From a virus: DNA of 64,000 nucleotides. Every line of letters begins with the position of its first letter. The stretch's first letter is position 1. The stretch lies in the IMG/VR virus record IMGVR_UViG_3300031722_000008, positions 1-64,000 of that record, one strand, 5' to 3'. Positions 15,196 to 62,239 of this stretch are shown here, in pieces. The notes under the pieces are model-generated. The model was given only the letters and a program-made list of their open reading frames with translations, ran no database searches and was not told where the DNA came from. Made by a program: the position numbers and the translations under genes.

Positions 15196-15648
15196 ATGGA
15201 TAAGAATTTTATTGATTTAATTTATTTTGAACAAACTCCTAATTATATGAAAAATGAAATAAAAAAATTATGGAATCCACAAGTAGGAGATTTGTTTTGC
15301 ACAAACAAAGATAATTTGCATGTAGTTCTTTCATATACAAATAAATTCATATTAACATGGTGTGGTGACAATATAAGAAAAGATAATTGTATGCCATTAT
15401 TAAATGAGACACAGTTAATAAGCTTTATCCGAAATAAATTTCATGCAGTTGCTGATGTAACTTATGTAGATAGAGACTCATCCACTGGATTGTTCGAAAT
15501 TGGCTTTGATTTATTCGAAATTAATTCAAGAGATGGAATATCAACAATGATAGTAAGTCATACATTTAAGGTTGAAAATACTCTTATGGGCTATTGGTTA
15601 TTAATACAGAAGATGCTGGAGGAGGAAGATAGATGTCAAGAAAAATAA
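15196..15648 (+). CDS. Hypothetical protein
   Basis: ORF with RBS. Confidence 0.7.
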   Translation: MDKNFIDLIYFEQTPNYMKNEIKKLWNPQVGDLFCTNKDNLHVVLSYTNKFILTWCGDNIRKDNCMPLLNETQLISFIRNKFHAVADVTYVDRDSSTGLFEIGFDLFEINSRDGISTMIVSHTFKVENTLMGYWLLIQKMLEEEDRCQEK

Positions 15649-17720
15649 TATTAGATGATATATTTAATAATGATGGAGCCATAAGTGACTTAAGAGATGG
15701 CTATAAAGAAAGACCGTCACAGATAGAGGCTGCTCATAGAATAAAGGATTGTTTGGACAATAATAAGATTGGAGTTATTGAGGGTGAAACAGGAATGGGT
15801 AAATCATATGCTTATCTGTTCCCTGTACTATTAGATATAATTGAAAGTGGATTTACGCACAGAGCTGTCATTGCAACATCGGGAATATCACTCCAAGAGC
15901 AATTAAATACTAAGGACGTTCCTTTTGCGATTGAAGTAATGAAATCTTTATATCCAAATATAACCGATGAGTTACAGTATACCTTATTAAAGGGTAGACA
16001 AAACTTTATATGTAATGAAAAGGTAGCAGATTTAGGATTATACGAAACAACAAAAAATATGATTGATAGTTCATTTGAGAAGATTTATGATTTCGTAAAT
16101 AATACAAAAACAGGAGATTTATCGGAACTTAATTTCATTCCTGAACAAGACATATTAGAAAAAATATGCTGTACAAAGAAAGGTGAATGTACAGGGAAGA
16201 ATTGTAAGTATCAACAAGAATGTTTCTATGGGAAACATAAGATAAAATTAAATTCATCAAAAATAATAATAACCAACTATCATATGTTATTTGCTGATAA
16301 TAAAATAGGAGGAAAGATACTACCAGTTTACGACATATTAGTATTTGATGAAGCTCATGAAGCAGCTAATATATTCAGGGATTTTGATGCACTAAAATTA
16401 TCTTATAATACAGTGTCTATGCTTAGAAATAAGAGCAGTGAATTAAATCACATATGCGCAAATTATAAGGATTCATTAGATCCTGAAATGTTTAACTCTG
16501 TTCTCAAGGAATTTGAAATTGCATTTTTTGATATAGAAGGAAAATTTACTGATTTAAGTTCTCCAACTATTATCAATAATAAAGATGAACTACCAAAATC
16601 TTTTTATGAACTAAAAACTCCGATGACAAATATAGATAACTGTATCGCTGACGCATTATCTAATTGCGAACAGAATCTAGCTGCATTCGGAGATAGCTAT
16701 GATGATGAAGAAAGTAAGGAAGTAACGAAAGTATATCAAATTCTGCAAACCATGTCCGATTCATCATCTGACATATTATACTTTATTACATCTATAGAAA
16801 ATATTCTAAAAGATGATAATAAAGTAATTTGGCTGGAAAAGATAAATGAAACAGTAAGCTTGAATTGTAAGAAAGTTGAGGTCGGAGGTTCATTAGCTGA
16901 AGCTTTCTTTGCTAGCGAAACTGTCACTTCTATATTTACATCAGCTACAATGAGTGTCGGTGGTTCCTTTGAATATATAAAAGAACAACTTGGATTAAAT
17001 CTATCAAAAAAAGATGTAGTTGAATTTATAGGTTCATCTCCATTTAATCTTGAAGAACAGCAATTATGGTATTTACCGGAAGGAGCCATAGAGGGAAATA
17101 AATTTGGATTTGATAAAACTATAGCTGGAAATATTCACTCTATAGTAAAAGCTACTGGTGGTGGAGCATTGTGCCTATTTACATCTGTGAAAAATATGAG
17201 AAATACTTTCTATGAACTGCAATATCAATTGCCATATACAATATATGTTCAAGGAGATATGCCAAGAACTAAGCTTGTGGAAAAATTCAAGGAAGATAAA
17301 AACTCTGTATTATTTGGTACACGCTCATTCTTTACTGGTGTTGATGTTCCTGGAGATGCACTTAGATGTGTAATTATAGATAAGTTTCCATTCCCTCAAC
17401 CAACAGATCCAATACAACAAAAACTAAAAGATAGAGCTAATTCATTTTATAAGTATTCAATTCCCGATATGGTAATAACACTTAAGCAAGCCATAGGTAG
17501 AGGAGTAAGAAGTGTAACTGACAAATGTGTAATTGTTATTTTAGATGGAAGAATGTCTACAGCTAAATATAAAGGAAGAATAAATTCTAGCTTTGGATAT
17601 AAGAAAACAGGGACTAGGGATTTAGAGAAAGTAAAAGAATATTGCAAGGATTTTATTGAAGAATCTAAACCTCTTGAATATCCTGAAAACGGAGAGGGCG
17701 ACGAGGATATGCCTTTTTAA
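15633..17720 (+). CDS. dinG: DinG/YoaA-family ATP-dependent helicase (Fe-S type)
   Basis: EGETGMGKS, KGRQNFIC, Cys cluster, DEAH, TSAT, LFTS, GVDVPG, KQAIGRGVRS. Confidence 0.93.
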   Translation: MSRKIILDDIFNNDGAISDLRDGYKERPSQIEAAHRIKDCLDNNKIGVIEGETGMGKSYAYLFPVLLDIIESGFTHRAVIATSGISLQEQLNTKDVPFAIEVMKSLYPNITDELQYTLLKGRQNFICNEKVADLGLYETTKNMIDSSFEKIYDFVNNTKTGDLSELNFIPEQDILEKICCTKKGECTGKNCKYQQECFYGKHKIKLNSSKIIITNYHMLFADNKIGGKILPVYDILVFDEAHEAANIFRDFDALKLSYNTVSMLRNKSSELNHICANYKDSLDPEMFNSVLKEFEIAFFDIEGKFTDLSSPTIINNKDELPKSFYELKTPMTNIDNCIADALSNCEQNLAAFGDSYDDEESKEVTKVYQILQTMSDSSSDILYFITSIENILKDDNKVIWLEKINETVSLNCKKVEVGGSLAEAFFASETVTSIFTSATMSVGGSFEYIKEQLGLNLSKKDVVEFIGSSPFNLEEQQLWYLPEGAIEGNKFGFDKTIAGNIHSIVKATGGGALCLFTSVKNMRNTFYELQYQLPYTIYVQGDMPRTKLVEKFKEDKNSVLFGTRSFFTGVDVPGDALRCVIIDKFPFPQPTDPIQQKLKDRANSFYKYSIPDMVITLKQAIGRGVRSVTDKCVIVILDGRMSTAKYKGRINSSFGYKKTGTRDLEKVKEYCKDFIEESKPLEYPENGEGDEDMPF

Positions 17721-18312: not shown

Positions 18313-18348
18313 TAAAAACAAGTTGGTCAATGACCAACTTGTTTTTTG
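18313..18348. terminator. Intrinsic terminator after the RNAP gene
   Basis: aaaacaagttggtc-aat-gaccaacttgtttt. Confidence 0.8.
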
Positions 18349-18353
18349 TGAAT

Positions 18354-21300
18354 CTATTTTAGGTATTTATTTACATCTATTTTGTTATTAAAGAAGTTAG
18401 ACATTTTATTTGTATATTTATCTTTAAATTCATCTTTTAGTTCTGCACCTGCCCCGATGTTCAACATCTTACCAGCCATAAGTCTTGCTCTTGGGTCTTG
18501 TAGATTATCTACTGCTCCCATTTCAGCACCAGAAGCTAATGTTCCCATAAGACCTCCGGAATTTCTACTTCCCATATCACCAAACCAATTTCCAGTAACA
18601 CTTGCTGGCATTTTACCTTGAAGTAAAACTTGATATTCTATTGGTTTATATAATACTTTCACTTTTTCAGTATATTTAGAAAGTAAGGCTACATTCTCTG
18701 ATGTTATTATTGAACCTTTTTTAGCGACCAATTTGCCTCCAATAATAATGTCAGTGGCTAATGTTCTTCCAAGTAATTGAGTTGCATCTACGGGAGAAAT
18801 ATCTACTGTTTTTGTTCCAGTACAATTTTCCTTATTCCATCTATCATAAAGATTTACATCACCTTTTTGTCCTTTCATGAATGATGAATCTCCTGAATCT
18901 GTAATTTGTGCAGTACCTGTTAATTTAGATACTATAGTTTCTGCATGTCTTCTATCCATATAAGCATTGGAAGCCTTGATAGCATATTGCATAGAGTTTG
19001 CTAAATAGTCCCTTGTGTAATTTACTGCTTCATGTTGACCATTAGCTTCTGCTCTCAATTTAAATAATTTGCTAGGATCAGCATTAGTAAGTACTAACGT
19101 TGTTTTGTTATTATCCATTGTAGCAACGATATCGCTGGAATCACCGACAGTTAAGAAATCTCCTTTCTCTACTACATCTCCACGTTTAACCTTTAATGCT
19201 GGAGGTGTTTGACCTAACACTTTTTTGATGACGTGTTTTCTTTTTCCGATCATTATAGTTATTTCATTTGGAGTTTCAGTTACACTATCTACTGTTCCGC
19301 TTTGTTCTGCTAATACAGCTTTATTTGAAGGCTTACTGCTAAGGTCTAGTATATTGTTAACTCTAGGTAATCCAAGAGTAGCAGCTGAATTTGCACCACC
19401 AGTATGGAAAGTATTCATTGTCATTTGAGTAACAGGTTCTCCTATAGCTTGAGAAGCTATAACTCCAACAGCAGTTCCTATCTTGACTGGTTGTATTGTT
19501 CCTGCCATCGCACCGTAGCAATGTTGGCATTTTCCATGTGGAGTTTTACATCTAAGTGGAGAACGTACTGGAACATATTCAATAGTATCATCTTTGAATA
19601 TTGCGTTATACATTTCACCAGTAATTATTTGGTTTCTTTTACAGATAACTCTTCCGGTTGAATCTTTTATGTCTTGACCTGCATATCTACCTTTGATTGT
19701 TTTATCATTCTTTGAAAGATTGATAAATTCCTTTGTTCCACAATCTTTTTCTGTTACAACTAAGTCTTGAGTTGTTGACCAGACATCTCTAGTTAATGCT
19801 CCTGGTGCTTCTGTTGAAACTGATCTGTCATACATACCTTTTCTTGAATCTCTGCCTAGTGTGTAATAATCTTGAGGACTTAATCCATCAAAATGGGAAT
19901 TTCTTATAGGGCTTAATGTTTTTAAACTAACGTCCATACCAACACCGATAGTTGAGAACATTTTTCTGATTTGTTGAGCATTAGCTCTAGCCCCAGAACT
20001 CATCATTACTTGTAATGGATTATCACTAGGAAGTAAACCACCTTTCAATTTACCTTCTATTTCATTTTCAACTTTTTTCCAAGATTCAGGATCTGTACTA
20101 TCTCCTTTTGCAGTAATTTTATTAATCTCAGATGTTACATTCTTATCGAAAGTAAAGTCTTTAACTCCAAGAGATAATCCTGTTCTTGTTGAAGCTTTAA
20201 ATCCTAAGTCTTTAACTGCATCAAATAAATTAGCTATTTCAACTTTTGACATTAATTTGAATCCTGTCAATTCTGATTCCTCATAAGTTTTTATAAGCAT
20301 TTTCATTACTTCATCCTTAGTCCAAACTTTTCTGAAATCTCTGTACTTCTTTATTCTTTCAGGAATTACCCAGTTAAATAAAGCTTGACCTGCAGTTGTT
20401 TCTTGCATACATATTGGAACTCTAACCTTACTATCATGGTTTACTCTGCCCATTAGATAATCTTTTCTAAGGTCTTTTTCATTAGCATAAGATTTCACTG
20501 TACCCTTTGGCTTATCCCAATGATTAGTTAATTGATATATTCCAAGAGCCATTTCATGTCTTATTTCTATAACCATTTTACCATCAGTAGGGTTAATTAA
20601 ATTGTGTGATGGCATAGCAAGTCTTCTAGCTTCTTCTTTAGCTTTTTCTGTTACAGGAACATGAGCTGCCATTGTATCTCCATCGAAGTCAGCATTGTAT
20701 CCAGTAACTACAAGTGGATTAAGTTGTAAACTTCTTACTACACCGCCATCTTCGTATTCTTTAATGACAGGCTTCATAGCTTGAATACTGTATTTATGAA
20801 GTGATGGCTGTCTATTTAAGAATAAAAGTCTATCACTTGCAATCTCTTGTATTATTTTCTTTACTTCTTGGTCAGGTTTATTTACTCTGCTTTCAGCTTC
20901 AATATCATTTTTGCATATACCCTTATCAACTAATCCTTTGATGATGAATGGCTTGTAGAGTTGTTTTGCCATATCTAAAGGAACTCCAACTTCGTCTAAT
21001 CTTAGATTAGGGTCAACAGTTATAACTGATCTTCCAGAGAAATCAACTCTCTTTGCAAGCATTTCTTTTCTAACTAATCCAGCTTTAGAACTTAATGTAT
21101 CTTTCATTGATGTTATTGTTTTGTCTCCATCTTTAGCATCGATGTGGCCTTGAAGCATCTTTAATGAATCGTACATAACTTTACTTCTTTGAGCTAAATC
21201 TTTTGGCGCTAATCCAGTACCATCAACATTTCCGTTGTTATCTAATACAGCCTCTCTCTCGGCTACCTGTTTAGCCGATAAAACTTTAGAGTATAATTTA

Positions 21301-24300
21301 TTCAAGTCATTAATCAATACACTTCTATCCTCTTGTTTAGGAATTATAGGTCTTAAATAAGAAGGAGTAACAGGTAAATATTTAACCATTAAATCTTGTG
21401 GCTTTAAGTTATTGTGCTTTAACATCTCAAAAGCCTTAACTTTTTTGTAAGCTTTATTTATGTCGTCACCATTTTTTGCAACATCTAAATCTATTCTAGC
21501 TTTATCTAATGATTTATCTACATCAATATTTTTCAAAATATATTCTAATGCAGCACCACCTGTCTTATAAGGAATATTAACACCTTGTTCTTTTAGTTTA
21601 TCTAATACATCTATAGGAACTAATTGACCTGTCTTGAATCCATGTTCTTCCATATTAGCTTTGAATTGTTCCTTATACATCTTAACAAGTTCTGGATTCT
21701 CAATTCTAGATAATGATGATTCCATTTCAGAAACATCAGTAATAATAGCCTTAGGTCCTTTTTCTCCTGTCACTGTAGCTGGTGCAGCTAATTGTTTTAG
21801 CTCATCTCTCTTTAATCCAGTTATATGCTCATAAATATTATTAGAAGCATTTTCCATAAATAAAGGATTTGGTACAGGAATAGGAAGTTTTATATAACCC
21901 CACTTATCTCTATCTTCATCTGTTCCTTCACCGAAAATTTCAGAATCCATAAGTCCACCTTTTTGATCTGGTGCAGACTTTTTACTACTATCAGTTTTTG
22001 TATCCTTATCTCCGTATAACTTTCTAGCATCTAGTATTTTAGATTCGAATACTTCTTTATCCTTACCTATAGTTTTTATGAATTCTTCTTGATTTATAGG
22101 AGCTAAACCTAAACTATTAAATGGTTTATCAAGTGATGTTTGCACTCCATTGTACATAGGTTTAACATGAAGTCCTAATGTCTTTAATGAATCAATATAA
22201 ACTTTTAGAGTTTCAGGAGTTGCTGATTTAGATAATTCAGCAGCATCAAGATTACCTGTTGATATAGCTTTAAATATTGCAGCCTTGCCCTTAGAATCGC
22301 CACCACCATCAGCTTTGATAGTTTGGTTCTCTAATAGATTCCATGCTGCTCCATGACCTTGTAATGCTCTCATTTCCATTTCGCCCAATCTTTGAGGATT
22401 GAACTTTTCACCTTGAGCTGTTCCAGTTTCTTTTTTAGGCATATGAGTTTTAGATGTCAAAGAAGTTTCTCTGTTACTTCTCGATTGAATTTTATCATCA
22501 ACCTTATGCTTAAGTTTCATGATGTAACAATTACCAACTGTTACTGGATTTTCGATAGGAACATCAATAATATTTCCATCATCGTCTTCTTCCTTTAATG
22601 TAACTTTCATTTTTCCATCAGGGAATCCGATTTGTTTCAATCCTTCAAGAACTCTATCCTTTTCACGATGGTTAAAGTTATCAACAACAAATGTCTTACC
22701 AGTCTTTTCGGCAATAAGTCCTGCTGCTGCTTCAAGTAATTGTCCTGGGTTCTTTCTTGAAGGTACTGCAAGAGGTGACATCATTAAATCTAATGGCTTT
22801 CCATCTTCTGCTACAGGCATTAGATTGTCAGCTAACACTCTTGTTATTGTTCCTTTATTACCATGTCTACCTGCAATCTTATCTCCTTTTTTCAAAGCCT
22901 TTTTATTAACTATACTGAATATTACCTTTTGTTTATTAACAGCATCAGGACTATTAACAACGGTAATTCTTTCTATTTTACCAGCTACATATGAACCATG
23001 AGGTACATTCATTTCACTATATTTGTATTTAATTTTTCCACTACCTAATGAAATTAAATCAATGATATCATCTGATTCTTTTGTTATTTCTTTTAGATAT
23101 CCAACCAATACAGAGCCAGCTTTGATTTCTGTGCCGACTTTTATAATACCATCATTATCAAATAATGAAAGATTTGAATTTGTAGTTTCTTTCATTAATT
23201 CGCTTTTAATGTTACTTCCTTTTCCTCCTAATGCATTTTGAGGAATCATTATTTCTACTTCATTAAATTCATCAGAAGTCATTCTATTTGCAAAACTTTG
23301 AGATACAATAACACCATCTTCATAGTTATATCCTTTGTAAGGAACATACCCTATTCTAGTATTTAATCCCAATGCTAATTTTCCATCTTTTGTGTGCCAA
23401 CCCTCAGCAATTATTTGCCCTTGATTTACTTTATCTCCTACTTTAACTTTCAGCTCATTATTAATATAACTTTGATTTAAAGGATAATAATGATAGTAAG
23501 CATGAGGATACTCTTTCCCATCTTCTCCGATAACTATGATAGATGAGTTTGTTATAGTTTGAACTGTACCATTAACTGCTGCTCTAATTGGTTTACCTTG
23601 TTCTTCTCCAACCTTTTGATCGAAAGTTTCACCAGTATGCTTGTCAGCTAATGTTGTAACAAGTGCAGCTTGTCTATTAACTAAAGGTATTGCTTGTTTC
23701 TGCATGGCAGCACCCATAAGAGTTCTTGAACCATCATTATGAGCAACAAAGGGAATCATATTAGCTGATGTACCTAAGATAGATTGAGGTGATGCATCCA
23801 CATAATTAATTTTAGAGATTGGATACATTCCGTTCTTATTCATGTATCTAGCAGGAACTACATCTTCTGTAAATACATACTTATTACCATCTTTATTTAC
23901 ATATCTTGAATCATTGAAAGCTATGATATTTTCCTCTTCCTCATTAGGAGATAATCTTAGTTTATTGGCATCACTTATGATAGCCTCACCATTTAACACT
24001 CTTAGGAATTCAGATTTTATTGTATGATTTTCTATCCTAGCTCCAACAGTTAAATGTTGAGTAAAACCTATCTTTCCACTTTCAGGAGTTTCAACTGGGT
24101 CTATTTTATTTATTCCACTTTGAGTTAAATTTCTAGCATCAGTTTCATTTCTCATGGAATTCTTACTCATTCCGTCTGGTCCACCTTGAGTAATTTCTCT
24201 TTGTTTAGCCTCCATAAATAAAGGATTTATTTCTTCTGAAGCTAAGCAAAGTTCACTATTCATAAGACCATTTCTACCATTTAAATCATTGTGAATAGTA

Positions 24301-25340
24301 TTTTGCATACCAGTAAGTAAAGGTGCACCTTTCTTTGTTGAATCATAAGAAGTCATCTTAGTTTTTACTGACTCTAAAAATTTATCTATACCATTAACTA
24401 TTGATTCAAAAATTAAATCATTGTCACTGTATATTTCTTTATATTTTATTAAGTCTTTTGTATCTTCCTCAACAAGTCCTGTAGAAACTGATACAGTCTT
24501 TTTTACAGCTTTAGAAATAAGTTCTTTATTTAGATAAAGATTATTTGTAGTCTTACCTAGTGTTGAACTTATAGCTGAACCATCTCCAAATGTAGCATGT
24601 TGAGCAAAGAAAGCTAATATATTTTCTCTCTTCTTAGCATCACTTAGATTTTCTCCACTGACTGCTCTAGGGAAGAATATTTTATATAATGTATCTAATG
24701 ATTTTTCATTTCTTTTCTTTTGATTTATAGTCATTATTGCATCAGAAGCATCGCTATCGCCGAATGACTTTTTAATTTCTGCATCAGTAAAACCTAATAG
24801 TGTCATTAAATTTACAACATTAAATTTAATTGCTGCACCATAAGATTTTATTTCTGTATTGAATACCTTTGTTTCGGGATCTAATATCATTGTCATTGCT
24901 GGCATGAATGCTCCAGCTACCTTATTTCTTTCAAATCTAAGCTGAGTCTTGATATTCCCATTACTAGATTTATTAGTATAACATCCAGGTTTCATTCTCA
25001 TTTGAGATATTATATTTTTTTCAATTCCATTAACAAGATAGGTACCTCTTTCTGTTGCTACAGGAAAAGTTACCAATTTTGCATAATGTCCATTATGAAC
25101 CGATGTACCTGCTCCATTAGTAATTTTAATTGTACCAGAAACAAACCCCTCAGTATTCCCACTTCCTGAGTATTTCATGTTAAGTTGATTATCGATATTA
25201 TAATTTGATTCAGGAATATTAACTTTTAAATTATCAATGTTAAGTTGTAATCCATGCTCACCTTTTAGGGGTAAACTTCCATTAATATATTTAACTATTC
25301 GATTCGCTAATTCTGTTGATTTATCAATCATTCTATTCAC
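18354..25340 (-). CDS. rpoBC: Single-polypeptide fused beta-beta' DNA-directed RNA polymerase (bacterial type)
   Basis: beta motifs PVETPE, GYNYED, GDKIAGRHGNKG, KLKHKVDDKIQSR, QRLGEME, then beta' motifs KRVDFSGRSVI, NRQPSLH, NADFDGD (20676-20696), SGAR, CxxxxGxCxxCYG, GEPVTQMTMNTFHTGG, all in one ORF. Confidence 0.97.
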   Translation of the reverse strand: MNRMIDKSTELANRIVKYINGSLPLKGEHGLQLNIDNLKVNIPESNYNIDNQLNMKYSGSGNTEGFVSGTIKITNGAGTSVHNGHYAKLVTFPVATERGTYLVNGIEKNIISQMRMKPGCYTNKSSNGNIKTQLRFERNKVAGAFMPAMTMILDPETKVFNTEIKSYGAAIKFNVVNLMTLLGFTDAEIKKSFGDSDASDAIMTINQKKRNEKSLDTLYKIFFPRAVSGENLSDAKKRENILAFFAQHATFGDGSAISSTLGKTTNNLYLNKELISKAVKKTVSVSTGLVEEDTKDLIKYKEIYSDNDLIFESIVNGIDKFLESVKTKMTSYDSTKKGAPLLTGMQNTIHNDLNGRNGLMNSELCLASEEINPLFMEAKQREITQGGPDGMSKNSMRNETDARNLTQSGINKIDPVETPESGKIGFTQHLTVGARIENHTIKSEFLRVLNGEAIISDANKLRLSPNEEEENIIAFNDSRYVNKDGNKYVFTEDVVPARYMNKNGMYPISKINYVDASPQSILGTSANMIPFVAHNDGSRTLMGAAMQKQAIPLVNRQAALVTTLADKHTGETFDQKVGEEQGKPIRAAVNGTVQTITNSSIIVIGEDGKEYPHAYYHYYPLNQSYINNELKVKVGDKVNQGQIIAEGWHTKDGKLALGLNTRIGYVPYKGYNYEDGVIVSQSFANRMTSDEFNEVEIMIPQNALGGKGSNIKSELMKETTNSNLSLFDNDGIIKVGTEIKAGSVLVGYLKEITKESDDIIDLISLGSGKIKYKYSEMNVPHGSYVAGKIERITVVNSPDAVNKQKVIFSIVNKKALKKGDKIAGRHGNKGTITRVLADNLMPVAEDGKPLDLMMSPLAVPSRKNPGQLLEAAAGLIAEKTGKTFVVDNFNHREKDRVLEGLKQIGFPDGKMKVTLKEEDDDGNIIDVPIENPVTVGNCYIMKLKHKVDDKIQSRSNRETSLTSKTHMPKKETGTAQGEKFNPQRLGEMEMRALQGHGAAWNLLENQTIKADGGGDSKGKAAIFKAISTGNLDAAELSKSATPETLKVYIDSLKTLGLHVKPMYNGVQTSLDKPFNSLGLAPINQEEFIKTIGKDKEVFESKILDARKLYGDKDTKTDSSKKSAPDQKGGLMDSEIFGEGTDEDRDKWGYIKLPIPVPNPLFMENASNNIYEHITGLKRDELKQLAAPATVTGEKGPKAIITDVSEMESSLSRIENPELVKMYKEQFKANMEEHGFKTGQLVPIDVLDKLKEQGVNIPYKTGGAALEYILKNIDVDKSLDKARIDLDVAKNGDDINKAYKKVKAFEMLKHNNLKPQDLMVKYLPVTPSYLRPIIPKQEDRSVLINDLNKLYSKVLSAKQVAEREAVLDNNGNVDGTGLAPKDLAQRSKVMYDSLKMLQGHIDAKDGDKTITSMKDTLSSKAGLVRKEMLAKRVDFSGRSVITVDPNLRLDEVGVPLDMAKQLYKPFIIKGLVDKGICKNDIEAESRVNKPDQEVKKIIQEIASDRLLFLNRQPSLHKYSIQAMKPVIKEYEDGGVVRSLQLNPLVVTGYNADFDGDTMAAHVPVTEKAKEEARRLAMPSHNLINPTDGKMVIEIRHEMALGIYQLTNHWDKPKGTVKSYANEKDLRKDYLMGRVNHDSKVRVPICMQETTAGQALFNWVIPERIKKYRDFRKVWTKDEVMKMLIKTYEESELTGFKLMSKVEIANLFDAVKDLGFKASTRTGLSLGVKDFTFDKNVTSEINKITAKGDSTDPESWKKVENEIEGKLKGGLLPSDNPLQVMMSSGARANAQQIRKMFSTIGVGMDVSLKTLSPIRNSHFDGLSPQDYYTLGRDSRKGMYDRSVSTEAPGALTRDVWSTTQDLVVTEKDCGTKEFINLSKNDKTIKGRYAGQDIKDSTGRVICKRNQIITGEMYNAIFKDDTIEYVPVRSPLRCKTPHGKCQHCYGAMAGTIQPVKIGTAVGVIASQAIGEPVTQMTMNTFHTGGANSAATLGLPRVNNILDLSSKPSNKAVLAEQSGTVDSVTETPNEITIMIGKRKHVIKKVLGQTPPALKVKRGDVVEKGDFLTVGDSSDIVATMDNNKTTLVLTNADPSKLFKLRAEANGQHEAVNYTRDYLANSMQYAIKASNAYMDRRHAETIVSKLTGTAQITDSGDSSFMKGQKGDVNLYDRWNKENCTGTKTVDISPVDATQLLGRTLATDIIIGGKLVAKKGSIITSENVALLSKYTEKVKVLYKPIEYQVLLQGKMPASVTGNWFGDMGSRNSGGLMGTLASGAEMGAVDNLQDPRARLMAGKMLNIGAGAELKDEFKDKYTNKMSNFFNNKIDVNKYLK

Positions 25341-25343
25341 TCC

Positions 25344-25508
25344 TTATTCATAACGTTCAATTTCAAGAAGATATAAGATCGTTCCTTCCTTTGGACAAGG
25401 GGAAATTACCTTATTGGTAATGTCTACCATATCATCATTTAATAATTCATTCAGAAGTCTTTCTTCTGCAGGAAGAGTATATACTTTCACCTCTTTTTTC
25501 TTCTTCAT
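25344..25508 (-). CDS. Small protein (54 aa) immediately upstream of the RNAP gene
   Basis: Manual ORF MKKKKEVKVYTLPAEERLLNELLNDDMVDITNKVISPCPKEGTILYLLEIERYE; its stop abuts the RNAP RBS. Confidence 0.6.
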   Translation of the reverse strand: MKKKKEVKVYTLPAEERLLNELLNDDMVDITNKVISPCPKEGTILYLLEIERYE

Positions 25509-25551: not shown

Positions 25552-25566
25552 GTATAAGATATTAAA
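25552..25566 (+). promoter_or_regulatory. GTATAAGATATTAAA motif with no substantial downstream gene
   Basis: Exact copy; terminator about 30 nt downstream. Confidence 0.75.
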
Positions 25567-25596
25567 GAAGAAATATAAACAGGGAAAGATGTATAA

Positions 25597-25630
25597 ATTA
25601 AAAACGAGGGCATTGCCCTCGTTTTTAATT
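25597..25630. terminator. Bidirectional terminator after the portal gene
   Basis: aattaaaaacgagggc-att-gccctcgtttttaatt. Confidence 0.85.
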
Positions 25631-27501
25631 TAGCTTTCTCTTCTTGGTGGTTTTTGATTAGGTAATGGTCTCATGTCAATTTTATCTTTAGATTGTTTAG
25701 TTTGTTTAGTTTGCTCTAATTCAGCTAATCTCTTTTCTACCATGCCTTTAGCTTCCATTGGTATCTTGGATAAATATTGGGTTTGTTGTTCTTTAGGCAT
25801 TTTAATTAAGCTAAGAGCTATCCTGTTTACTTCTTTCTCAACATCACCATTGTTTTGTTGTCCCTCTTGAGGTTGTTGAGACTGCTTACTTTCCCCTGCT
25901 TGTTGATTAGTGGCTTGTTGTTCACCAGTTCCTCCAGATTGAGGAGCTTGTTGTTCTTCAGGATTAATATTAACTCCGTATTGCTGTGCAAGTTTTTGTT
26001 GCATTGCTTGTAATTTAAACTGCATTTCCATTTGTTTTATTTGGAGTTGTTCCTGTAGCTCCATAGATTCTATTTGCATTTTAATCTTCTCATTTTCGGC
26101 TTTCGTTTGAAGAAGTAGAGCATCCATAGTTTCCTTTTCGATGGCTTCTTTCATCTTATCAGAATCCATACCCATTGCTTTCCACATATAATCATTAGAA
26201 CATTTATTTGCACTATTCAACTGAATAATTAATTGTTTTTGTTGAACATCATCTTGCATTTTTAGGTCAGACATTTTTACTGAAAGTAATGCATCATCAT
26301 CTTCTTCTGATAACCATTCACCCCTGGCTTTTGCCATACCCCTAATTATAAAGTTTTGCATAAAATCTTCTAAAAGAAGTCTATATGTTATAAATTGATT
26401 TTCTAATATTCTAAGAGATATTGAACTTCCTGAATAACTTACTCCACCGAAAATAAATTCTTTAGGCATATTCATACCAGCTAAGATTTCAGATTGAACT
26501 TGGTCTATTTCAGGAGCAAGTAATAAACTTCTTCCTTCTCCACCAACATTTATAACATTAACTGGTACTGGAGATACAACTTTATAGTTAGGATCCCTAA
26601 CAGATTTTTTTATTTGGTCAGCTAAGTCCTGTGCTGTTTTATTCCAATCAGCTTGAATGTTAACAGTATTTGTTCTATCAAGATAATATATTCTCATTGG
26701 CACTATATGCTCTCTAGCGATAGCCTCTTGTGCTTGCCTAAGAACATTTCTGTACATCAATAGTTTTAGTACGTTTGCTACTACAGGAACTCCCCAGACG
26801 CTATTATCACCCATAGAATCGGTCGCTCTACTGAAATGATAAACATTATCAGGGTTTAGTATGATACTTTTATTTTTTCTAACAGCTTGTTTCATAAGTT
26901 CTGGTATTTTTTCATATTCAGCTTTCGGTTGTTTCTTTGTTACTATATCTCTTATTTTTTGAGGAATAGTCCATCGAAATGTCTTACTTCCTGTAGCTGG
27001 ATTATAATCTATAATCATTTTCGAAGGATCTAATCTAATCATATTAGTCCATTCTTTTTCACCCTTAGAGTTTCCTCCAAGCTCACCCATAACAAAGCAA
27101 TTTCCATATAAAAAGTAATCTATCCCTATCTCTATAAGTAATTTATGAAGATTAAGATTTTTAAATAAAACCTTCTCATAGAGTTTAACTGAATCTGATT
27201 TTTCTTTACTTTTATTTTCATCATCTTCTAGTGTAACTTCGGATACAGGGAATGTAGCTAACGCATTGATAGCTCCACTTATTAATGGATCAAATGTATA
27301 GTAATATTTACACCATTTAAATACATCTATAGTTGATTCAGGTAATTGCATATCAGAAAGATTTAAAAAAGGTGATGGATATGGATTTTGCATATTACCT
27401 CTGAATGAGGCTACCTTTTCTTGCGAACCTTCAATGGCTGCATTAAGTTCTTTCTCTAACATGGCTTTTTTATCTTTCTCATCTAAAAACCCTTTACTCA
27501 T
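25630..27501 (-). CDS. Putative portal protein with Gln-rich C-terminal extension
   Basis: DPLISGAIN, DYFLYGNCF, RLDP, NVYHF, WGVP, ILAGMNMP portal-like pattern; near terminase and protease. Confidence 0.75.
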   Translation of the reverse strand: MSKGFLDEKDKKAMLEKELNAAIEGSQEKVASFRGNMQNPYPSPFLNLSDMQLPESTIDVFKWCKYYYTFDPLISGAINALATFPVSEVTLEDDENKSKEKSDSVKLYEKVLFKNLNLHKLLIEIGIDYFLYGNCFVMGELGGNSKGEKEWTNMIRLDPSKMIIDYNPATGSKTFRWTIPQKIRDIVTKKQPKAEYEKIPELMKQAVRKNKSIILNPDNVYHFSRATDSMGDNSVWGVPVVANVLKLLMYRNVLRQAQEAIAREHIVPMRIYYLDRTNTVNIQADWNKTAQDLADQIKKSVRDPNYKVVSPVPVNVINVGGEGRSLLLAPEIDQVQSEILAGMNMPKEFIFGGVSYSGSSISLRILENQFITYRLLLEDFMQNFIIRGMAKARGEWLSEEDDDALLSVKMSDLKMQDDVQQKQLIIQLNSANKCSNDYMWKAMGMDSDKMKEAIEKETMDALLLQTKAENEKIKMQIESMELQEQLQIKQMEMQFKLQAMQQKLAQQYGVNINPEEQQAPQSGGTGEQQATNQQAGESKQSQQPQEGQQNNGDVEKEVNRIALSLIKMPKEQQTQYLSKIPMEAKGMVEKRLAELEQTKQTKQSKDKIDMRPLPNQKPPRRES

Positions 27502-38104: not shown

Positions 38105-39721
38105 CTAACTACTAAACTTATTTTTTATCTTTTGAATTAAACTTTCTTTTGGTCTCATTTTACGGTTATTTTCATCAAGTAAATTATATAGTAGTTGATT
38201 TTGTTTAGCCTTATTATCAGCTATTTCATAAATAACTTCATCAGGAGTCCTATATGGAGATTTAAATAAACCTAACGTTTTTGGCATAGTAGATAGATAC
38301 CTATTTACTTCGACCTTTCGTTCGCCCTCCGCCCGTTTCGATTGACCGAACGCTCTTATTCCTCTGGCTTCCATTTGCTTCATTCTTTCTGGATTATAGT
38401 GACCATCTAAGGCACCTTCCCATGTAGTATCTCCAAGAGATAATCCTTCTGCTCCTGCCCCACTTATAAGCATTACTCTTTTCTTTCTAGCATTATAATC
38501 ATTAACATCATTCTGTCTAGTTTCTTCTGTAACTCCTTTATTACCCTTACCTATAAACTTTCCATAACTTATTCCTCTATCCTTAAGTCCTGCTTCTAAT
38601 ACATCAGCTCCACCATTAATCATATTAGTTAGTAGTATTGCTTGACCATCAGGAGTTGTCTTTAAATGTTCTTGCATATCACTAAGCATCTTATCTGTTT
38701 TTGGTGATAGCCTTGAACTTTCTTTTAGTGATATTCCAGGAACTACTGAACCAACACTATTAACTAATTTTCTTGCTTCTATCATACGATTAAATGCTTT
38801 TGATATTTCATCATCTTTTAGGGTTTCTAATCTTTTTTGTTTTATTATTTCTCTTAGTTTAGGGTCATTCTTAATTAATTGCTTATAATATTTAGCTTGC
38901 TCTTTAGATAATGGAACTTTTTCGGTATGAGTTTCTTTAAGTGGAATCTTGGCCATAGGTCTAACATCATCAACGCTAGCATAGTCAACATATTTAGCTA
39001 AGTCACCTTGCAATCTTTTCTTATTGTTAAAACCAGTAACAGGAACTCTATTCTCCTTAAGTCCTTTATATTTAGGTGAAGTACTTCTCTTTAGATAATT
39101 CTTATCAAAATCTTTCGAAGTAGCACCTAGATGATGTTCGCCTTGTGAAGCTAAATCAACTAAATTGTACATATCAGGAATATGATTATTTACTATAGAG
39201 CCTGTTAATCCTATAAAATTCTTGTATTTATCTCTAGTGCTTTTGAAACTATCTAATGTCGCAGTATCATTATTTCTAAGCTTATGCATTTCATCAGCTA
39301 TGACTGTGTCAGCACCAGTATCCCTTAAGATAGCTTCAGGATTTTTCCTGAACATTTCATATGAAATTATATTATAGTCAGAATCTTTATTGGGTGCATG
39401 ACCTGTTCCTTTTGATATCTCACCCATATTACCCACAATATTATATTTACTGTCCGTAAATTTTTTTACACCATCATTTCCAAAATTATGTCTTAAACTT
39501 GCTGGAGTAACTACGAGTGCTTTGTTCGCTAAGCCTTTTTCTTTCATCTTTTCGAACTTAGCTATCGATGATAATGTTTTACCACTTCCAACATCGTGCG
39601 CAACAATCATACTGTTTGATGGATTATCAACTACACGTTTTTGAAACGGATTAAATTCTATATCATCATGAAGTTTTGCTTGTTTCTCTATTTGCTCTTT
39701 ATATTTATCTCTTTTCATCAC
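38105..39721 (-). CDS. SNF2-family (SF2) helicase/translocase with N-terminal EKQA tag
   Basis: HDVGSGKT, TPASL, ISYE, DEMH, LTGS, GAEGLSL, QMEARGIR; starts DKYKEQIEKQA. Confidence 0.88.
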   Translation of the reverse strand: MMKRDKYKEQIEKQAKLHDDIEFNPFQKRVVDNPSNSMIVAHDVGSGKTLSSIAKFEKMKEKGLANKALVVTPASLRHNFGNDGVKKFTDSKYNIVGNMGEISKGTGHAPNKDSDYNIISYEMFRKNPEAILRDTGADTVIADEMHKLRNNDTATLDSFKSTRDKYKNFIGLTGSIVNNHIPDMYNLVDLASQGEHHLGATSKDFDKNYLKRSTSPKYKGLKENRVPVTGFNNKKRLQGDLAKYVDYASVDDVRPMAKIPLKETHTEKVPLSKEQAKYYKQLIKNDPKLREIIKQKRLETLKDDEISKAFNRMIEARKLVNSVGSVVPGISLKESSRLSPKTDKMLSDMQEHLKTTPDGQAILLTNMINGGADVLEAGLKDRGISYGKFIGKGNKGVTEETRQNDVNDYNARKKRVMLISGAGAEGLSLGDTTWEGALDGHYNPERMKQMEARGIRAFGQSKRAEGERKVEVNRYLSTMPKTLGLFKSPYRTPDEVIYEIADNKAKQNQLLYNLLDENNRKMRPKESLIQKIKNKFSS

Positions 39722-40544
39722 TATGCCTCCTAAACTTACTTAATCCATAAGCTCCAAGTCCAATACCAGCTGTCCCGATTCCAATTCCAAGTGCAAGCTT
39801 TTTATTTATTCTTGATTTAGGTATATTTCTTATTTTATCTTTATATTTCTCTTTGTTTTTATAGCAATGATCAATTATTATTTTGTCATTATCTCTAGCT
39901 AGATAAGCTTGAAACGGTTTTTTCTGAACATAATCCATTCTTGATATTTCTAAGTCCTTTTTAAATTGATTACTCATATCCTTATTGACAGATATTTTTT
40001 TGCCATAATTTTTCAAACCATCATTTTTAGGATCTAATAGGCTTCTTGATAATTTCAATTTTTTAGGGAAAGATTTATTCTCGTAATATGGAGAGAATGC
40101 TCCCTCATTCATCATTTGAGCATCAAAACCATGAGTTCCCTTTACTATAGCATTTCTCTTCGAAACAGCATTATAGAGTTCTTTATCTCCCTTGCTTAAT
40201 TTTTTTACTCCTGAAAACTTATCAAATACATTTAACATTGCTTTCTCGGATTTACTCATGTTTGAGTTCTTGATATCAAAATCAGCAAGTGATTTTGGTG
40301 ATACTATATTTGTCTTACCACCCTTAGAATTTATTTGCTGAAATTCTTTATCATCCACAATATCATTCATATCCCATTTTTCTATTAAATTTTTATTCCC
40401 TAGTTCCACACCCTTTGCAATTTCGGAATTACTCTTTCCTACAGTTTTAATTAATTTATTTCGATTTTTATTTGATAACTCATGATATTTCTCTTTCCAT
40501 TTTGTTGCAGCTTGCTTTTCTATTTGCTCTTTATATCGATTCAA
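39705..40544 (-). CDS. EKQA-tagged basic protein with C-terminal transmembrane segment
   Basis: MNRYKEQIEKQA...LALGIGIGTAGIGLGAYGL. Confidence 0.75.
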   Translation of the reverse strand: MNRYKEQIEKQAATKWKEKYHELSNKNRNKLIKTVGKSNSEIAKGVELGNKNLIEKWDMNDIVDDKEFQQINSKGGKTNIVSPKSLADFDIKNSNMSKSEKAMLNVFDKFSGVKKLSKGDKELYNAVSKRNAIVKGTHGFDAQMMNEGAFSPYYENKSFPKKLKLSRSLLDPKNDGLKNYGKKISVNKDMSNQFKKDLEISRMDYVQKKPFQAYLARDNDKIIIDHCYKNKEKYKDKIRNIPKSRINKKLALGIGIGTAGIGLGAYGLSKFRRHSDEKR

Positions 40545-41223: not shown

Positions 41224-42018
41224 TTAATAGTTTAATGAATATCTTGCCTCATTTCTTATTCTATCTAAGTTTGGAGATACCTTATTTTGTGCGTGATTAA
41301 AGGCACCATTTTGATCCATCGCTACTCCAGTTAATCTTCCGAAACCTGCTCCAAGTCCTGCACCTAATCCTCCAGAAAGAACAACTTTCCCTAGTCTATT
41401 AGTTGTTCCTCCTGCCAATCCTAATCCTAATCCTGCTAATGCTCCAACTCCAGTTCCAATCTTAAGACCTGTCTTTTTTGCAGTTAAACTATCATATTTA
41501 TTTTGATATTCTTTAGAGCTGTAGACATTACTTATTGATGAATCTAACTCTTTATATTTATTTAAAGTATCTTCACTAACCCTTTTATTAGTCTTATGAG
41601 CAACTAATACTTTCATAATATCTTCATTCATACCATTAACTAAAGCTGATTGTATATCATTTCTGATATGAGGTTTCAGATCATCTTGAAGAGAATTTGG
41701 TAGTCTCCTATACCAAATAGAATTAGTTACATCACTCAAATGTTTATCGGTCTTTTCGCGTATAGATAAGGCTTCATTATTAGTCTTTTGGTGTTTTGCT
41801 TCGTTGCTTCTCGTCGGAGTGCTCGTCGCATATCTCGTCGCACTCCTTGTATGTTGATTAATATCGTTCTTATATTGTTCTTTAGTCTTTTTGAACTGAC
41901 CACTTCTAAATCCACTATCTGCTGATTGATTGGAATTACCTCCAAAATCTCCGCTTCTGTATTCGCCAGTTACTGCCTCTTTTTCAATTTGTTCTTTGTA
42001 ATTCATATTACAATACAC
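41224..42018 (-). CDS. EKEA-tagged protein with C-terminal glycine zipper
   Basis: MNYKEQIEKEA...GTGVGALAGLGLGLAG...GGLGAGLGAGFG. Confidence 0.75.
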   Translation of the reverse strand: MYCNMNYKEQIEKEAVTGEYRSGDFGGNSNQSADSGFRSGQFKKTKEQYKNDINQHTRSATRYATSTPTRSNEAKHQKTNNEALSIREKTDKHLSDVTNSIWYRRLPNSLQDDLKPHIRNDIQSALVNGMNEDIMKVLVAHKTNKRVSEDTLNKYKELDSSISNVYSSKEYQNKYDSLTAKKTGLKIGTGVGALAGLGLGLAGGTTNRLGKVVLSGGLGAGLGAGFGRLTGVAMDQNGAFNHAQNKVSPNLDRIRNEARYSLNY

Positions 42019-43611: not shown

Positions 43612-44082
<471 letters not shown>

Positions 44083-44159
44083 TAATTTTCCTCCTATCAT
44101 ATAATTATCATAGGTTCATTATAACTTAATTTATTATTTTTTAAAAATAATAATAAATG

Positions 44160-58319: not shown

Positions 58320-58337
58320 AACATATTGGGGGAGGAA

Positions 58338-59783
58338 ATGGAGAGAAAATCTATAAAATTAAAGATAGATTCAAAGGAAGAAATAAGGGAAATGTCTATA
58401 GATGAAGTTTATGAACAATTTAAAAACTTCATCTATAAGTCCTGTCAATCATGGCTCAGACAATATGAATTTGATGATTTATGCCAAATTGCATCAATAG
58501 GATTAACAAAAGCTTATAATAAATATGACGTAAGTAAGGATATATTATTCCTAACATATGCAGCAAGAATAGTGCAAAATGAAATTCTCATGTACAATAG
58601 AAAAAATAAAGAGAATTATTTTTGTGATAGCCTTAATAGAACAATACTTGGAAAAGATGATAGTGAGGAAGAGTTACAATCTTTTATTCCTGACAGTATC
58701 AATATAGAAGATGATGTTGTTCAAAAATATCAATGTATTGAATTACAAGAAGTAATAGAGAATCTAACAGATAGAGATAAAGAGATAGTGACAGAGATTG
58801 CTTTTAATGAAAAGACACAGCTTCAATTATCGGAGAAGTTAGGCTTGTCCCAATCTTACGTATCAAGAATATATAGCAGAACATTAAAAACAATAAAGGG
58901 TAGAATGGAGAATGATGATATGCCTCACGAATTAAAAATAACAAGAGAACAATTACTCAAAGATTGCTTAGTTCTTGGCACTAGCAAAACAGCACAACAA
59001 ATAATTGCTGATACTTATGGATTCTCGAACCGATTAACTGTCGGTAATTATATTTCTAAGTTTAAAATAAAGGAGGAAATGGTAAAAATCAAAGAGAAAG
59101 AAATGAAAGATGAGGGGGAGGATATTAAAGTGAGAAAAGAAGATGCAAAAATAACAAGAGAGCAATTACTCAAGGAATGCATGGCTGTCGGAACCAGTTG
59201 GTCATCAGCTAAAAAAATAGCTGATAAATACGGATTGGCTCACGCAACCATAGGTAATTATATCAATAGAATGAAAATCAGAGAAGAAATTGATAAGATG
59301 GATAATAATAAAAAACCTGAAGAAATTGATAAGATGGATAATAATAAAAAACCTGAAGAAAATAATGTAGTTGAGAATCCTATTCTTGATAATAGGATTT
59401 CTAAAGAGATTGTTAGTGATAATATAAAGCTTTCAAAAACAATAAATAGAAATCCTGCGCTATCAAAGGACAATATTGTTATGAGAGACTATAAACCTAA
59501 AACATGGGATGAATACGCGAAAGACCATGATGGCGATGTTCCTAGACAAAAGATTCTGGAGAATAGATCAAAATTAAGATCTATTCTCCGAGGTAATATT
59601 GGTGAATATGATATTACAGGTGAATTGATAGCAGCAAAAATTAATGGTTCTAGTATAATTATAGATGAATCAGAGATACCAGAACTAATCGAAGAACTTC
59701 AAGAATTAATGAAAGCAATGAAAGGTATGGCTTATGTGAACTATCTAAAGAATGATACAGAAAGGAAAGTAAGTAATGATTAG
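58338..59783 (+). CDS. SigE/SigK-like sigma-70 factor fused to a C-terminal region with duplicated HTH-like repeats
   Basis: Region 2 DDL.Q.ASIGL.KA..KYD...FLTYAARIVQNEILMY; region 4 TQ.QLSEKLGLSQSYVSR; two KITREQLLK.C...GT repeats. Confidence 0.85.
   Translation: MERKSIKLKIDSKEEIREMSIDEVYEQFKNFIYKSCQSWLRQYEFDDLCQIASIGLTKAYNKYDVSKDILFLTYAARIVQNEILMYNRKNKENYFCDSLNRTILGKDDSEEELQSFIPDSINIEDDVVQKYQCIELQEVIENLTDRDKEIVTEIAFNEKTQLQLSEKLGLSQSYVSRIYSRTLKTIKGRMENDDMPHELKITREQLLKDCLVLGTSKTAQQIIADTYGFSNRLTVGNYISKFKIKEEMVKIKEKEMKDEGEDIKVRKEDAKITREQLLKECMAVGTSWSSAKKIADKYGLAHATIGNYINRMKIREEIDKMDNNKKPEEIDKMDNNKKPEENNVVENPILDNRISKEIVSDNIKLSKTINRNPALSKDNIVMRDYKPKTWDEYAKDHDGDVPRQKILENRSKLRSILRGNIGEYDITGELIAAKINGSSIIIDESEIPELIEELQELMKAMKGMAYVNYLKNDTERKVSND
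59283..59354 (+). repeat. Perfect 36-bp tandem duplication in the coding region (EEIDKMDNNKKP x2)
   Basis: gaagaaattgataagatggataataataaaaaacct twice. Confidence 0.9.
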
Positions 59784-61061: not shown

Positions 61062-61092
61062 AAATAGAGGTGGCTTAGCCACCTCTATTTTT
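61061..61092. terminator. Bidirectional terminator
   Basis: aaaatagaggtggc-tta-gccacctctatttt. Confidence 0.85.
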
Positions 61093-62239
61093 ACCTTTTC
61101 TTTTTTTGTTCATCAAGCATTGATTTTGTTTTCATTCCTGTATTATATTGCATATGAGAAGATGATGCATTCAATGCTCCCCCAGCTACTCCTGTTCCTA
61201 GAGTAGTTAATGCGGTAAGCGCTCTTTCTCCACCTTCTGATACTTTCTTTCCACCGTAATAGTTTTTAGAAAGGTCCTCACCTACATCTTGCAATTTAGA
61301 ATTTATATCTCTAACTCTTTTACCTGAATCAGCCATACCTTTCATGTGATTTAATGCTTCTTCCTGTTCTTTCTTTGATAACCTCTTGCCCTTTTTAGCT
61401 GCATTAAATAGTTGTTCGGCTTTATCTACGCCACCCATTGTTTTATTAGATTCCCTCATTAAATCGCCACCAAGTCCTTGGAATTCGGATAGCTTACCTA
61501 GTGATTTAGTGTATTTCATTACTCTTTTTGGATTAAAGGAATCCATACTTCCTTTTGCCATATTCATAAGATTATGTGATAACCCTGGCATTTTCTTTCT
61601 TACTGCAAGTGCTGCTGCCCCTGTCATTGCTGCTGGCATTAATGCGCCTGTTGCTGCTCCACTAATAAATCCACTGGCGTCTCCTACAGCTTTATGAATC
61701 TTATGATGCTTTTCATTTTGCAGAGAGTTTCTAAATGTACTAACTCCTGTTGGGTCAAACCCCGATACAAAATCTTTCATATATGATGATTCTGCTAATT
61801 TTTCACAAGCTATCTTTTCTATTTGTTCTTTATAATTCATATTTGCCTCCTTATTCATCCAATTATTAAATTTACCTATTTGCTCAATCAAGTGTTTCGG
61901 ATTACCATCAAAGCATACTGCATTATCATCGACATACATTATTGCTGGTGGTTTTTCTTTTGCCACCCCATCTACTTTAATATCATATTTTTCTAGCCAT
62001 TTTTTAATAGCATCTATCCCACCTTTTTGGAAACATCTGGTAGATACAACAACGATTTTATAATCTTGCCTTAATTTATCTATAGCTTCTTTTATTCCCT
62101 CTACTGGTTTATCAGGTATATTGGTTGTTCCTTTCCAACCACTAATATAGGAGTGAATCACTCCGTCAAAATCAAACACTATGGTTTTTTTAGCGCTTGC
62201 TATTTTTTCTATTAATTTCTTATAATTCAACATCATCAA
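61091..62239 (-). CDS. Two-module KxA-tagged protein: HAD-family phosphatase plus hydrophobic module
   Basis: NYKKLIEKIA, then FDFDGV...STR...KP..YVDD (HAD), then KEANMNYKEQIEKIACEKLA, then Gly/Ala-rich helices. Confidence 0.8.
   Translation of the reverse strand: MMMLNYKKLIEKIASAKKTIVFDFDGVIHSYISGWKGTTNIPDKPVEGIKEAIDKLRQDYKIVVVSTRCFQKGGIDAIKKWLEKYDIKVDGVAKEKPPAIMYVDDNAVCFDGNPKHLIEQIGKFNNWMNKEANMNYKEQIEKIACEKLAESSYMKDFVSGFDPTGVSTFRNSLQNEKHHKIHKAVGDASGFISGAATGALMPAAMTGAAALAVRKKMPGLSHNLMNMAKGSMDSFNPKRVMKYTKSLGKLSEFQGLGGDLMRESNKTMGGVDKAEQLFNAAKKGKRLSKKEQEEALNHMKGMADSGKRVRDINSKLQDVGEDLSKNYYGGKKVSEGGERALTALTTLGTGVAGGALNASSSHMQYNTGMKTKSMLDEQKKKR

Follow-up and report, generated by a model that had tools for sequence, protein, structure and literature searches.

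Can a phage carry the entire catalytic core of a bacterial-type RNA polymerase (RNAP) in one polypeptide, and what would such an enzyme do during infection? This question is raised by a long open reading frame (ORF) on the minus strand of a 64,000-nucleotide stretch of viral DNA (hereafter the window; positions 1 to 64,000 of IMG/VR record IMGVR_UViG_3300031722_000008). An earlier note on this DNA had read the ORF as a phage-encoded fusion of the RNAP beta and beta' subunits that was host-derived, streamlined, devoid of the beta' zinc-binding domain, probably rifampicin-resistant and packaged in the virion. Judged by its sequence, the ORF encodes a double-psi-barrel RNAP of bacterial type whose whole catalytic core is one polypeptide, and we consider it very probable that this single chain is functional as a core.

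The fused polymerase gene

The ORF was free of stops throughout its 2,328 codons (Table 1). Because an AAGGAG sequence lies 8 nt 5' of the ATG at 25331, this codon, rather than the GTG chosen by the ORF caller, is probably the true start, which would give a protein of 2,325 residues. Pfam placed Rpb2 domains 3, 45, 6 and 7 at residues 369-1061 and, after them, Rpb1 domains 1-5 at residues 1115-2158; the beta and beta' parts join directly near residue 1064, without a spacer domain. The core motifs were found at residues 670 (GYNYED), 824 (GRHGNKG), 1430 (KRVDFSGRSVI), 1549 (NADFDGD) and 1977 (TFHTGG). They include both parts of the active site of a double-psi-barrel enzyme: beta' supplies NADFDGD, and beta the loop GRHGNKG with its two lysines. 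The nearest solved structures were bacterial beta (E 1e-98) and bacterial beta' (E 2e-116). The open frame, the order of the Pfam domains and the positions of the motifs confirmed the earlier reading of one ORF that holds beta, beta' and all of their core motifs.

An AlphaFold (AF2) model of residues 1-560 (predicted local distance difference test [pLDDT] 84, predicted template modelling score [pTM] 0.82) superposed almost end to end on bacterial beta, with template modelling (TM) scores of 0.71-0.76, so that the beta lobes missed by Pfam are present. As modelled, the RNAP is compact and not truncated, its size being that of a compact bacterial beta plus beta' minus the lineage-specific inserts. 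The description of the enzyme as streamlined was thus overstated: the zinc ribbon is gone, but the beta lobes are kept.

We aligned the RNAP with E. coli RpoB and RpoC and 58 homologues to compare individual elements. In E. coli beta' the IFG and GHIEL anchors enclose 37 residues with the C70/C72/C85/C88 ribbon; in the RNAP a 9-residue linker without cysteines takes the place of this ribbon, as had been proposed. The divergence of the flap tip was confirmed. Relative to E. coli, the rifampicin pocket carries Q513L, F514A, D516E, H526K, R529E, S531T and L533G, and the earlier assignment of E, K and T to the equivalents of D516, H526 and S531 was correct. In all, the changes affect six to seven of the positions that contact rifampicin, and the pocket also varies within the homologue family. 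The altered positions are direct rifampicin contacts, and Q513L is a resistance substitution in its own right. Since these contact residues are changed, insensitivity of the RNAP to rifampicin is a reasonable prediction.

Table 1. Coordinates of the polymerase gene, its parts and other features of the window.
Feature	Position	Strand	Remarks
Fused beta-beta' RNAP ORF	18354..25340	-	2,328 codons from GTG 25340; probable start ATG 25331
Beta module	22149..25340	-	residues 1 to ~1064, with lobes, Rif-pocket region, flap, GRHGNKG
Beta' module	18354..22148	-	residues ~1065-2328
Rifampicin-pocket segment (cluster I equivalent)	24189..24236	-	contact residues changed
Flap-tip region	23016..23102	-	divergent and shortened
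GRHGNKG	22851..22871	-	beta active-site motif, equivalents of E. coli K1065/K1073
Linker replacing beta' zinc-binding domain	21903..21929	-	9 residues, Cys-free, residues 1138-1146
Clamp-helix (sigma-docking) coiled coil	21141..21323	-	inserted tip of ~16 residues
NADFDGD	20676..20696	-	catalytic Mg-binding motif
Second beta' zinc site	19512..19745	-	kept; one Cys in DCGT..., three in ...RCKTPHGKCQHCYG
Intrinsic-terminator-like hairpin	18314..18346	-	just past the RNAP stop codon
54-aa ORF	25344..25508	-	conserved, between portal and RNAP; stop at the RNAP ribosome-binding site
15-mer copy	25552..25566	+	opposite the RNAP unit, directed away from RNAP towards portal, into the terminator
Bidirectional intrinsic-terminator hairpin	25594..25632	.	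between portal and small ORF/RNAP unit
Portal protein	25630..27501	-	homologous to Arash and Vibrio D69 portals
SNF2-type helicase	38105..39721	-	homologue of Arash virion-associated Gp217; N-terminal IEKQA tag
Sigma70-family factor	58326..59783	+	region 2 at residues 29-95, region 4 at 144-191; C-terminal extension of ~290 residues

Bacterial beta and beta' are thought to require an alpha dimer for their assembly into an active enzyme. In six-frame searches with hidden Markov models (HMMs), which matched in all 14 control genomes, neither alpha (PF01000, PF01193) nor omega (PF01192) was matched in the record or in either of two complete relatives, and the absence of an alpha gene that had been noted for the window therefore holds for all three. 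Each of the complete relatives contained one Rpb1_2 and one Rpb2_6 locus, both of them within the fused gene, indicating that these phages have a single RNAP of this type. The model of the T7/N4-type single-subunit RNAP (RNA_pol, PF00940) had no match in the three records, and the control genomes were silent with it as well. We regard independence of the RNAP from alpha and omega as probable.

Relatives and descent of the polymerase

A word-indexed search recovered about 60 full-length homologues (2,225-2,340 aa, 32-72% identity) from independent assemblies, on contigs of up to 170 kb. They form a family of ~60 clusters at 90% identity, to which a sister group of fused proteins of ~2,000 aa is added. 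The fusion and the loss of the zinc ribbon were common to all of the ~60 full-length homologues, and both were also found in the ~2,000-aa group and in the phages Arash and Vibrio D69. As so many independent homologues share the beta/beta' join, we accepted it as real; the retention of fusion and ribbon loss across these sequences demonstrates purifying selection and excludes an artefact. An assembly chimera at the join was rejected, since the same fusion occurs in the ~60 homologues.

One relative (L007:9971-18388, plus strand) encodes an RNAP of 2,805 aa that carries an intein, with a homing-endonuclease-like insert, right after NADFDGD. An intein in a catalytic loop is the usual mark of an indispensable active site, and we took this one as a sign that the active site is essential. 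Intein or LAGLIDADG Pfam domains were also seen in the homologues P0036, P0067 and P0086.

The two complete relatives are genomes of 166,758 and 152,620 bp with direct terminal repeats. Because an exact copy of the 54-aa ORF next to the RNAP gene sits on a contig of 160,540 bp, we place the genome of the window phage at about 160 kb; the source is an uncultured tailed phage of that size, and its host is probably a low-GC member of the Bacillota. A scan of genome contigs with the RNAP returned mostly haloarchaeal RNAP loci, matched through low-complexity patterns, and was uninformative on the host; the sole relative that it found was a 2.9-kb phage fragment within a metagenome-assembled genome of the Cyclobacteriaceae.

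The RNAP was 28-30% identical to the beta and beta' subunits of E. coli, Staphylococcus aureus and Enterococcus faecalis, compared with 52-56% between E. coli and S. aureus. It scored below the cut-offs of the NCBIfam models for rpoC (TIGR02386, 544 against 963.5 bits) and rpoB (NF001616 and TIGR02013, 443 against 896 and 415 against 801 bits), and of the models for rpoBC fusions (NF007172, 592 against 5,372 bits; NF011417, 525 against 4,632 bits). Maximum likelihood on the beta' core, with 65 rows and 820 columns, gave an unrooted tree (support from the Shimodaira-Hasegawa-like approximate likelihood ratio test [SH-aLRT]) in which the family of ~2,300-aa fused proteins was monophyletic with a support of 100. 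Another branch with an SH-aLRT of 100 set a phage side of 37 rows, made up of this family, the ~2,000-aa fused group, Arash and Vibrio D69, apart from all of the sampled bacteria, the beta' of a Rhizobium phage and the ribbon-bearing fused proteins. The zinc ribbon was absent from every member of the phage side and present in every bacterial sequence compared, and the ribbon-bearing fused metagenomic proteins (P0064, P0065 and P0153) grouped with the bacteria.

Since the split in the tree matches the presence and absence of the ribbon, fusion and ribbon loss seem to be derived characters that the members of an old lineage of phages have in common. An ancient bacterial origin of the whole group is compatible with the unrooted tree. 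A recent capture of host rpoBC was rejected because of the low identity and the placement among phages, and the earlier description of the enzyme as host-derived is unsupported in that sense. The phylogeny against bacterial and phage RNAPs that the earlier note had called for places the RNAP apart from the sampled bacteria, in a tree that is unrooted.

Gene neighbourhood, promoter-like motif and sigma factor

Genes for the large terminase, the portal and two helicases, one YoaA/DinG-like and one of the SNF2 type, surround the RNAP gene. A 640-aa protein, the portal, the small ORF and the RNAP follow one another in conserved order in relatives with RNAPs of just 42-45% identity; there the portal and the small ORF lie at most 15 nt apart, and in four relatives the RNAP is packed right behind the portal with no space for a promoter of its own. 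The order of portal, small ORF and RNAP also recurs in Arash (Gp204, Gp205 and Gp206) and in Vibrio D69. The window portal matched the Arash portal with an E value of 3e-49, and the SNF2 helicase matched Gp217 with 3e-36. In gradient-purified Arash virions Gp206 gave the most spectra, and Gp216, the sigma factor Gp10 and the helicase Gp217 were detected too (PMC10585845).

The small ORF yielded a confident beta-alpha-beta-beta model (pLDDT 92.7), for which Foldseek searches of the PDB and the viral library returned no match at E < 0.001. We had considered its product as an analogue of omega and rejected this, as the fold is beta-alpha-beta-beta and not helical, with no Foldseek match. The slot between portal and RNAP holds gp205 in Arash and CDS 260 in Vibrio D69, both with a comparable strand-helix-strand-strand pattern predicted at the C-terminus; a profile of the small ORFs gave no significant match to gp205 or D69_260.

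The YoaA/DinG-like helicase, of the iron-sulfur type, is encoded at 15633-17720 on the plus strand, adjoining the RNAP unit, and matched the YoaA model with E 3e-133, under the cut-off; ORFs of 710-717 aa that resemble it lie near the RNAP in the relatives L005 and L008. A short motif, [ILVF]EKxA, often in the form YKxxIEKxA close to the N-terminus, was seen in 17 minus-strand proteins between 299 and 62239, including the SNF2 helicase (examples are 38105-39721, 39705-40544, 41224-42018, 43612-44100 and 61091-62239). By its sequence, this motif looks like a prohead-protease or capsid-targeting tag. It was absent from the RNAP, the portal and the terminase.

A 15-mer, GTATAAGAyATTAAA, occurs in the window in 12 exact and 2 near-exact copies, all on the plus strand, where 1.2 would be expected, and the whole 80-kb record holds 21 forward and no reverse copies. 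The sites in the window span 3273-63938 (for example 3273, 4591, 25552, 40617, 46262, 48432, 52924 and 56290). Variants of the motif (GTATAAGAAATAAAA and similar) were found 19 times forward and 0 times reverse in one complete relative and 12 and 2 times in the other, with at most 3 occurrences of a control pattern. The copies lie 20-45 nt 5' of start codons, often directly after a terminator, and one lies ahead of a tRNA, which led us to regard the 15-mer as a transcription signal. Neither a conserved -35 element nor a TG extension was found at the copies, and a k-mer search revealed no second, minus-strand-specific (late) motif. As a template sequence, the candidate promoter reads GTATAAGATATTAAA. 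Because the 15-mer is rigid and lineage-specific, has no -35 element and stands before small early-looking genes and the sigma operon, we infer that it fits recognition by a phage enzyme better than recognition by the host holoenzyme.

The phage sigma70-family protein, whose gene the earlier note had not connected with the RNAP, passed the superfamily model, and the closest models were of the Bacillota SigK/E/F/G type, under whose cut-offs it fell. Relatives of 40-52% identity were found on phage-sized contigs, and one of 39% identity in Clostridium genomes; one of the two complete relatives encodes a sigma factor of 219 aa. The C-terminal extension (residues 200-485) contains a tandem EEIDKMDNNKKP repeat and has weak helix-turn-helix-like matches, and an atlas search returned no informative homologue for it. 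Complex predictions of the N-terminal 200 residues of sigma with a fragment holding the beta' clamp helices (alignments A1 and A2) gave 0.00, 0.49 and 0.00, and were used neither way.

Proposed role and place among known polymerases

The explanation that we favour overall, at somewhat better than an even chance, is a single-chain RNAP that is free of alpha and omega, is packaged, and carries out rifampicin-insensitive early transcription from the 15-mer with the phage sigma. In this mechanism the covalent link between beta and beta' would replace the alpha dimer as the platform of assembly, and the chain would be active with no alpha or omega, like the split phiKZ and AR9 enzymes. The RNAP gene would be expressed with the portal, late in infection, and its product would enter the capsid and reach the next cell together with the DNA. 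Once delivered, the RNAP would start rifampicin-insensitive early transcription from the -35-less 15-mer, and the phage sigma70-family factor, co-packaged or made early, would confer or switch promoter specificity. Taken separately, virion delivery of the RNAP stands at about an even chance on the present analysis, and its use of the phage sigma is equally balanced. The full combination, in which a self-sufficient single-polypeptide core without alpha and omega is packaged beside the portal in the capsid, injected, and, with the phage sigma, acts on a -35-less 15-bp promoter unaffected by rifampicin, is more tentative, and we would sooner doubt it than assert it.

Several observations weigh against this explanation. 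For this phage, virion packaging of the RNAP is a plausible prediction. In this window the bidirectional terminator stands between the portal and the RNAP unit, and the RNAP is among the proteins without the [ILVF]EKxA tag. The packaging claim of the earlier note is supported indirectly: the adjacency to the portal is conserved and, as the strongest point in its favour, the Arash homologue is found in virions, but the tag is lacking and a terminator intervenes. The Arash proteome was also permissive, with 116 of 252 proteins called structural, including ribonucleotide reductase and ligase (PMC10585845). The sigma gene is in a plus-strand block behind a 15-mer, outside the late block; it has no BLAST similarity to the Arash sigma; and in the second complete relative we found no recognisable full sigma70-family gene. 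The RNAP may use the alpha and omega of the host, and the window is part of a record that is rated 52% complete.

Other explanations account for some of these observations. That the gene is an artefact or cellular, either a mis-joined rpoB/rpoC or a bacterial fragment (from a symbiont rpoBC, for instance) binned as viral, is very improbable. Fusions of this kind do exist in bacteria, as the models NF007172 and NF011417 attest, and contamination with host rpoB/rpoC does occur in public phage collections. However, the ~60 independent full-length homologues, the terminase, portal and helicases that flank the gene, the terminal repeats of the complete relatives, scores far under each cellular equivalog cut-off and the position of the family in a phage-only group of the tree all argue for a phage gene. 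As an observation on such collections, OR844998.1, OR846602.1 and similar entries (L100 and L101), which bear the names of Staphylococcus, Enterococcus or Listeria phages with the tag UNVERIFIED_ORG, hold an ordinary host rpoB-rpoC, which is contamination. A non-virion enzyme is a more serious alternative, although we consider it unlikely. Here the host RNAP would read the early genes, with the 15-mer serving it as a promoter of the host type through a strong -10-like box; the phage sigma and RNAP would be made after infection to take over middle and late genes, and the adjacency to the portal would be historical. The TATAAG within the 15-mer matches the sigma-A -10 hexamer at 5 of 6 positions, the sigma gene itself is preceded by a 15-mer, and sigma-A-like hexamers accompany the terminator upstream of the RNAP unit in the window; the missing tag and the permissive Arash list fit this alternative as well. 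On the other hand, the position of the RNAP directly behind the portal in four relatives implies a timing that fits a packaged enzyme and not a need at middle genes; the 15-mer has neither a -35 element nor a TG extension and is conserved nearly letter for letter even though the RNAPs are 42-45% identical; and Gp206 is highest in the spectral counts of Arash virions.

Equally, the phage sigma could redirect the host RNAP, in the manner of SPO1 or of sporulation factors, while the fused RNAP relies on some other specificity factor or on none at all; the two would then be functionally unlinked. The nearness of this sigma to the Bacillota SigK/E/F/G-type models and to the Clostridium sigma of 39% identity would be expected of such a factor, as would a complete relative that has the RNAP and lacks a full sigma. 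We nevertheless think this slightly less likely still than a non-virion enzyme, since Arash virions hold RNAP and sigma together, the RNAP retains its clamp-helix and flap-tip docking elements, albeit in modified form, and in the Cobetia phage Carin-5 the genes for sigma, beta and beta' share an operon.

The window RNAP resembles most closely the enzymes of Arash (Gp206 and Gp216) and of the Vibrio phages D69, D148 and D181, in which beta is likewise fused to the N-terminal part of beta' and a Cys-free linker takes the place of the zinc domain. In Arash and Vibrio D69, as in the window, the RNAP follows right after the portal with a small ORF between them, the portal and the SNF2-type helicase are homologous, and the RNAPs fall on the same side of the fully supported branch. 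The differences are that their RNAPs are only ~25% identical to that of the window, that their beta' is split after approximately residue 1640 (into proteins of 1,525 and 606 aa), and that AADYDGD stands in their catalytic loop where the window RNAP has NADFDGD. They infect Gammaproteobacteria. The Arash paper reports beta, beta' and sigma in virions and leaves the fusion, the loss of the zinc finger and the lack of alpha unanalysed (PMC10585845).

The phiKZ and AR9 RNAPs are also phage-encoded double-psi-barrel enzymes without alpha and omega, of which one set is packaged, and they are rifampicin-resistant (PMC7618050, PMC7598289, PMC13282480). Like the window phage, phiKZ and AR9 have no alpha or omega homologues in their genomes. 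In contrast to the one continuous chain described here, their enzymes consist of 4-5 polypeptides and are far more divergent; their genomes encode two sets, whereas the complete relatives of the window phage have one; and they use non-canonical specificity subunits (gp68, gp226), whereas the window phage has a canonical sigma70-family gene. In reviews up to 2026, the phage multisubunit RNAPs described are all of the phiKZ/AR9 type, which is split, sigma-less and duplicated (PMC7824862, PMC7598289, PMC13282480, PMC7618050). The rpoBC fusions of the Helicobacter and Wolbachia type share with the window RNAP a beta and beta' placed head to tail in one polypeptide. These cellular fusions still assemble with two alpha subunits and omega. 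The RNAP genes in the operon of Carin-5 (L102) are bacterial-like and, unlike the window RNAP gene, unfused and not adjacent to the portal; the bacterial-like beta' of Rhizobium phage RHph_TM3_3_6 (L103; Kleczkowskaviridae) is likewise unfused and not portal-adjacent, retains the zinc ribbon with its four cysteines and groups with the bacteria in the tree. In our literature searches we found no description of a fully fused, ribbon-less beta-beta' phage RNAP with a sigma70-family partner. Phage multisubunit RNAPs free of alpha and omega were already known from phiKZ and AR9.

If the proposed mechanism is true, it would be a third, independent route to virion-delivered transcription beside those of N4 and phiKZ, and the enzyme would be the simplest natural RNAP of the multisubunit type known. 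A natural single chain without alpha and omega that has a near-canonical active site would directly test the requirement for the alpha dimer, and as a compact, sigma-programmable and probably rifampicin-insensitive enzyme it would be useful for studies of mechanism and for orthogonal expression. The loss of the beta' ribbon across the lineage is a natural experiment on RNA exit, termination, and the docking of sigma and host factors. As the lineage is large and has cultured members in Arash and Vibrio D69, these predictions can be tested at the bench.

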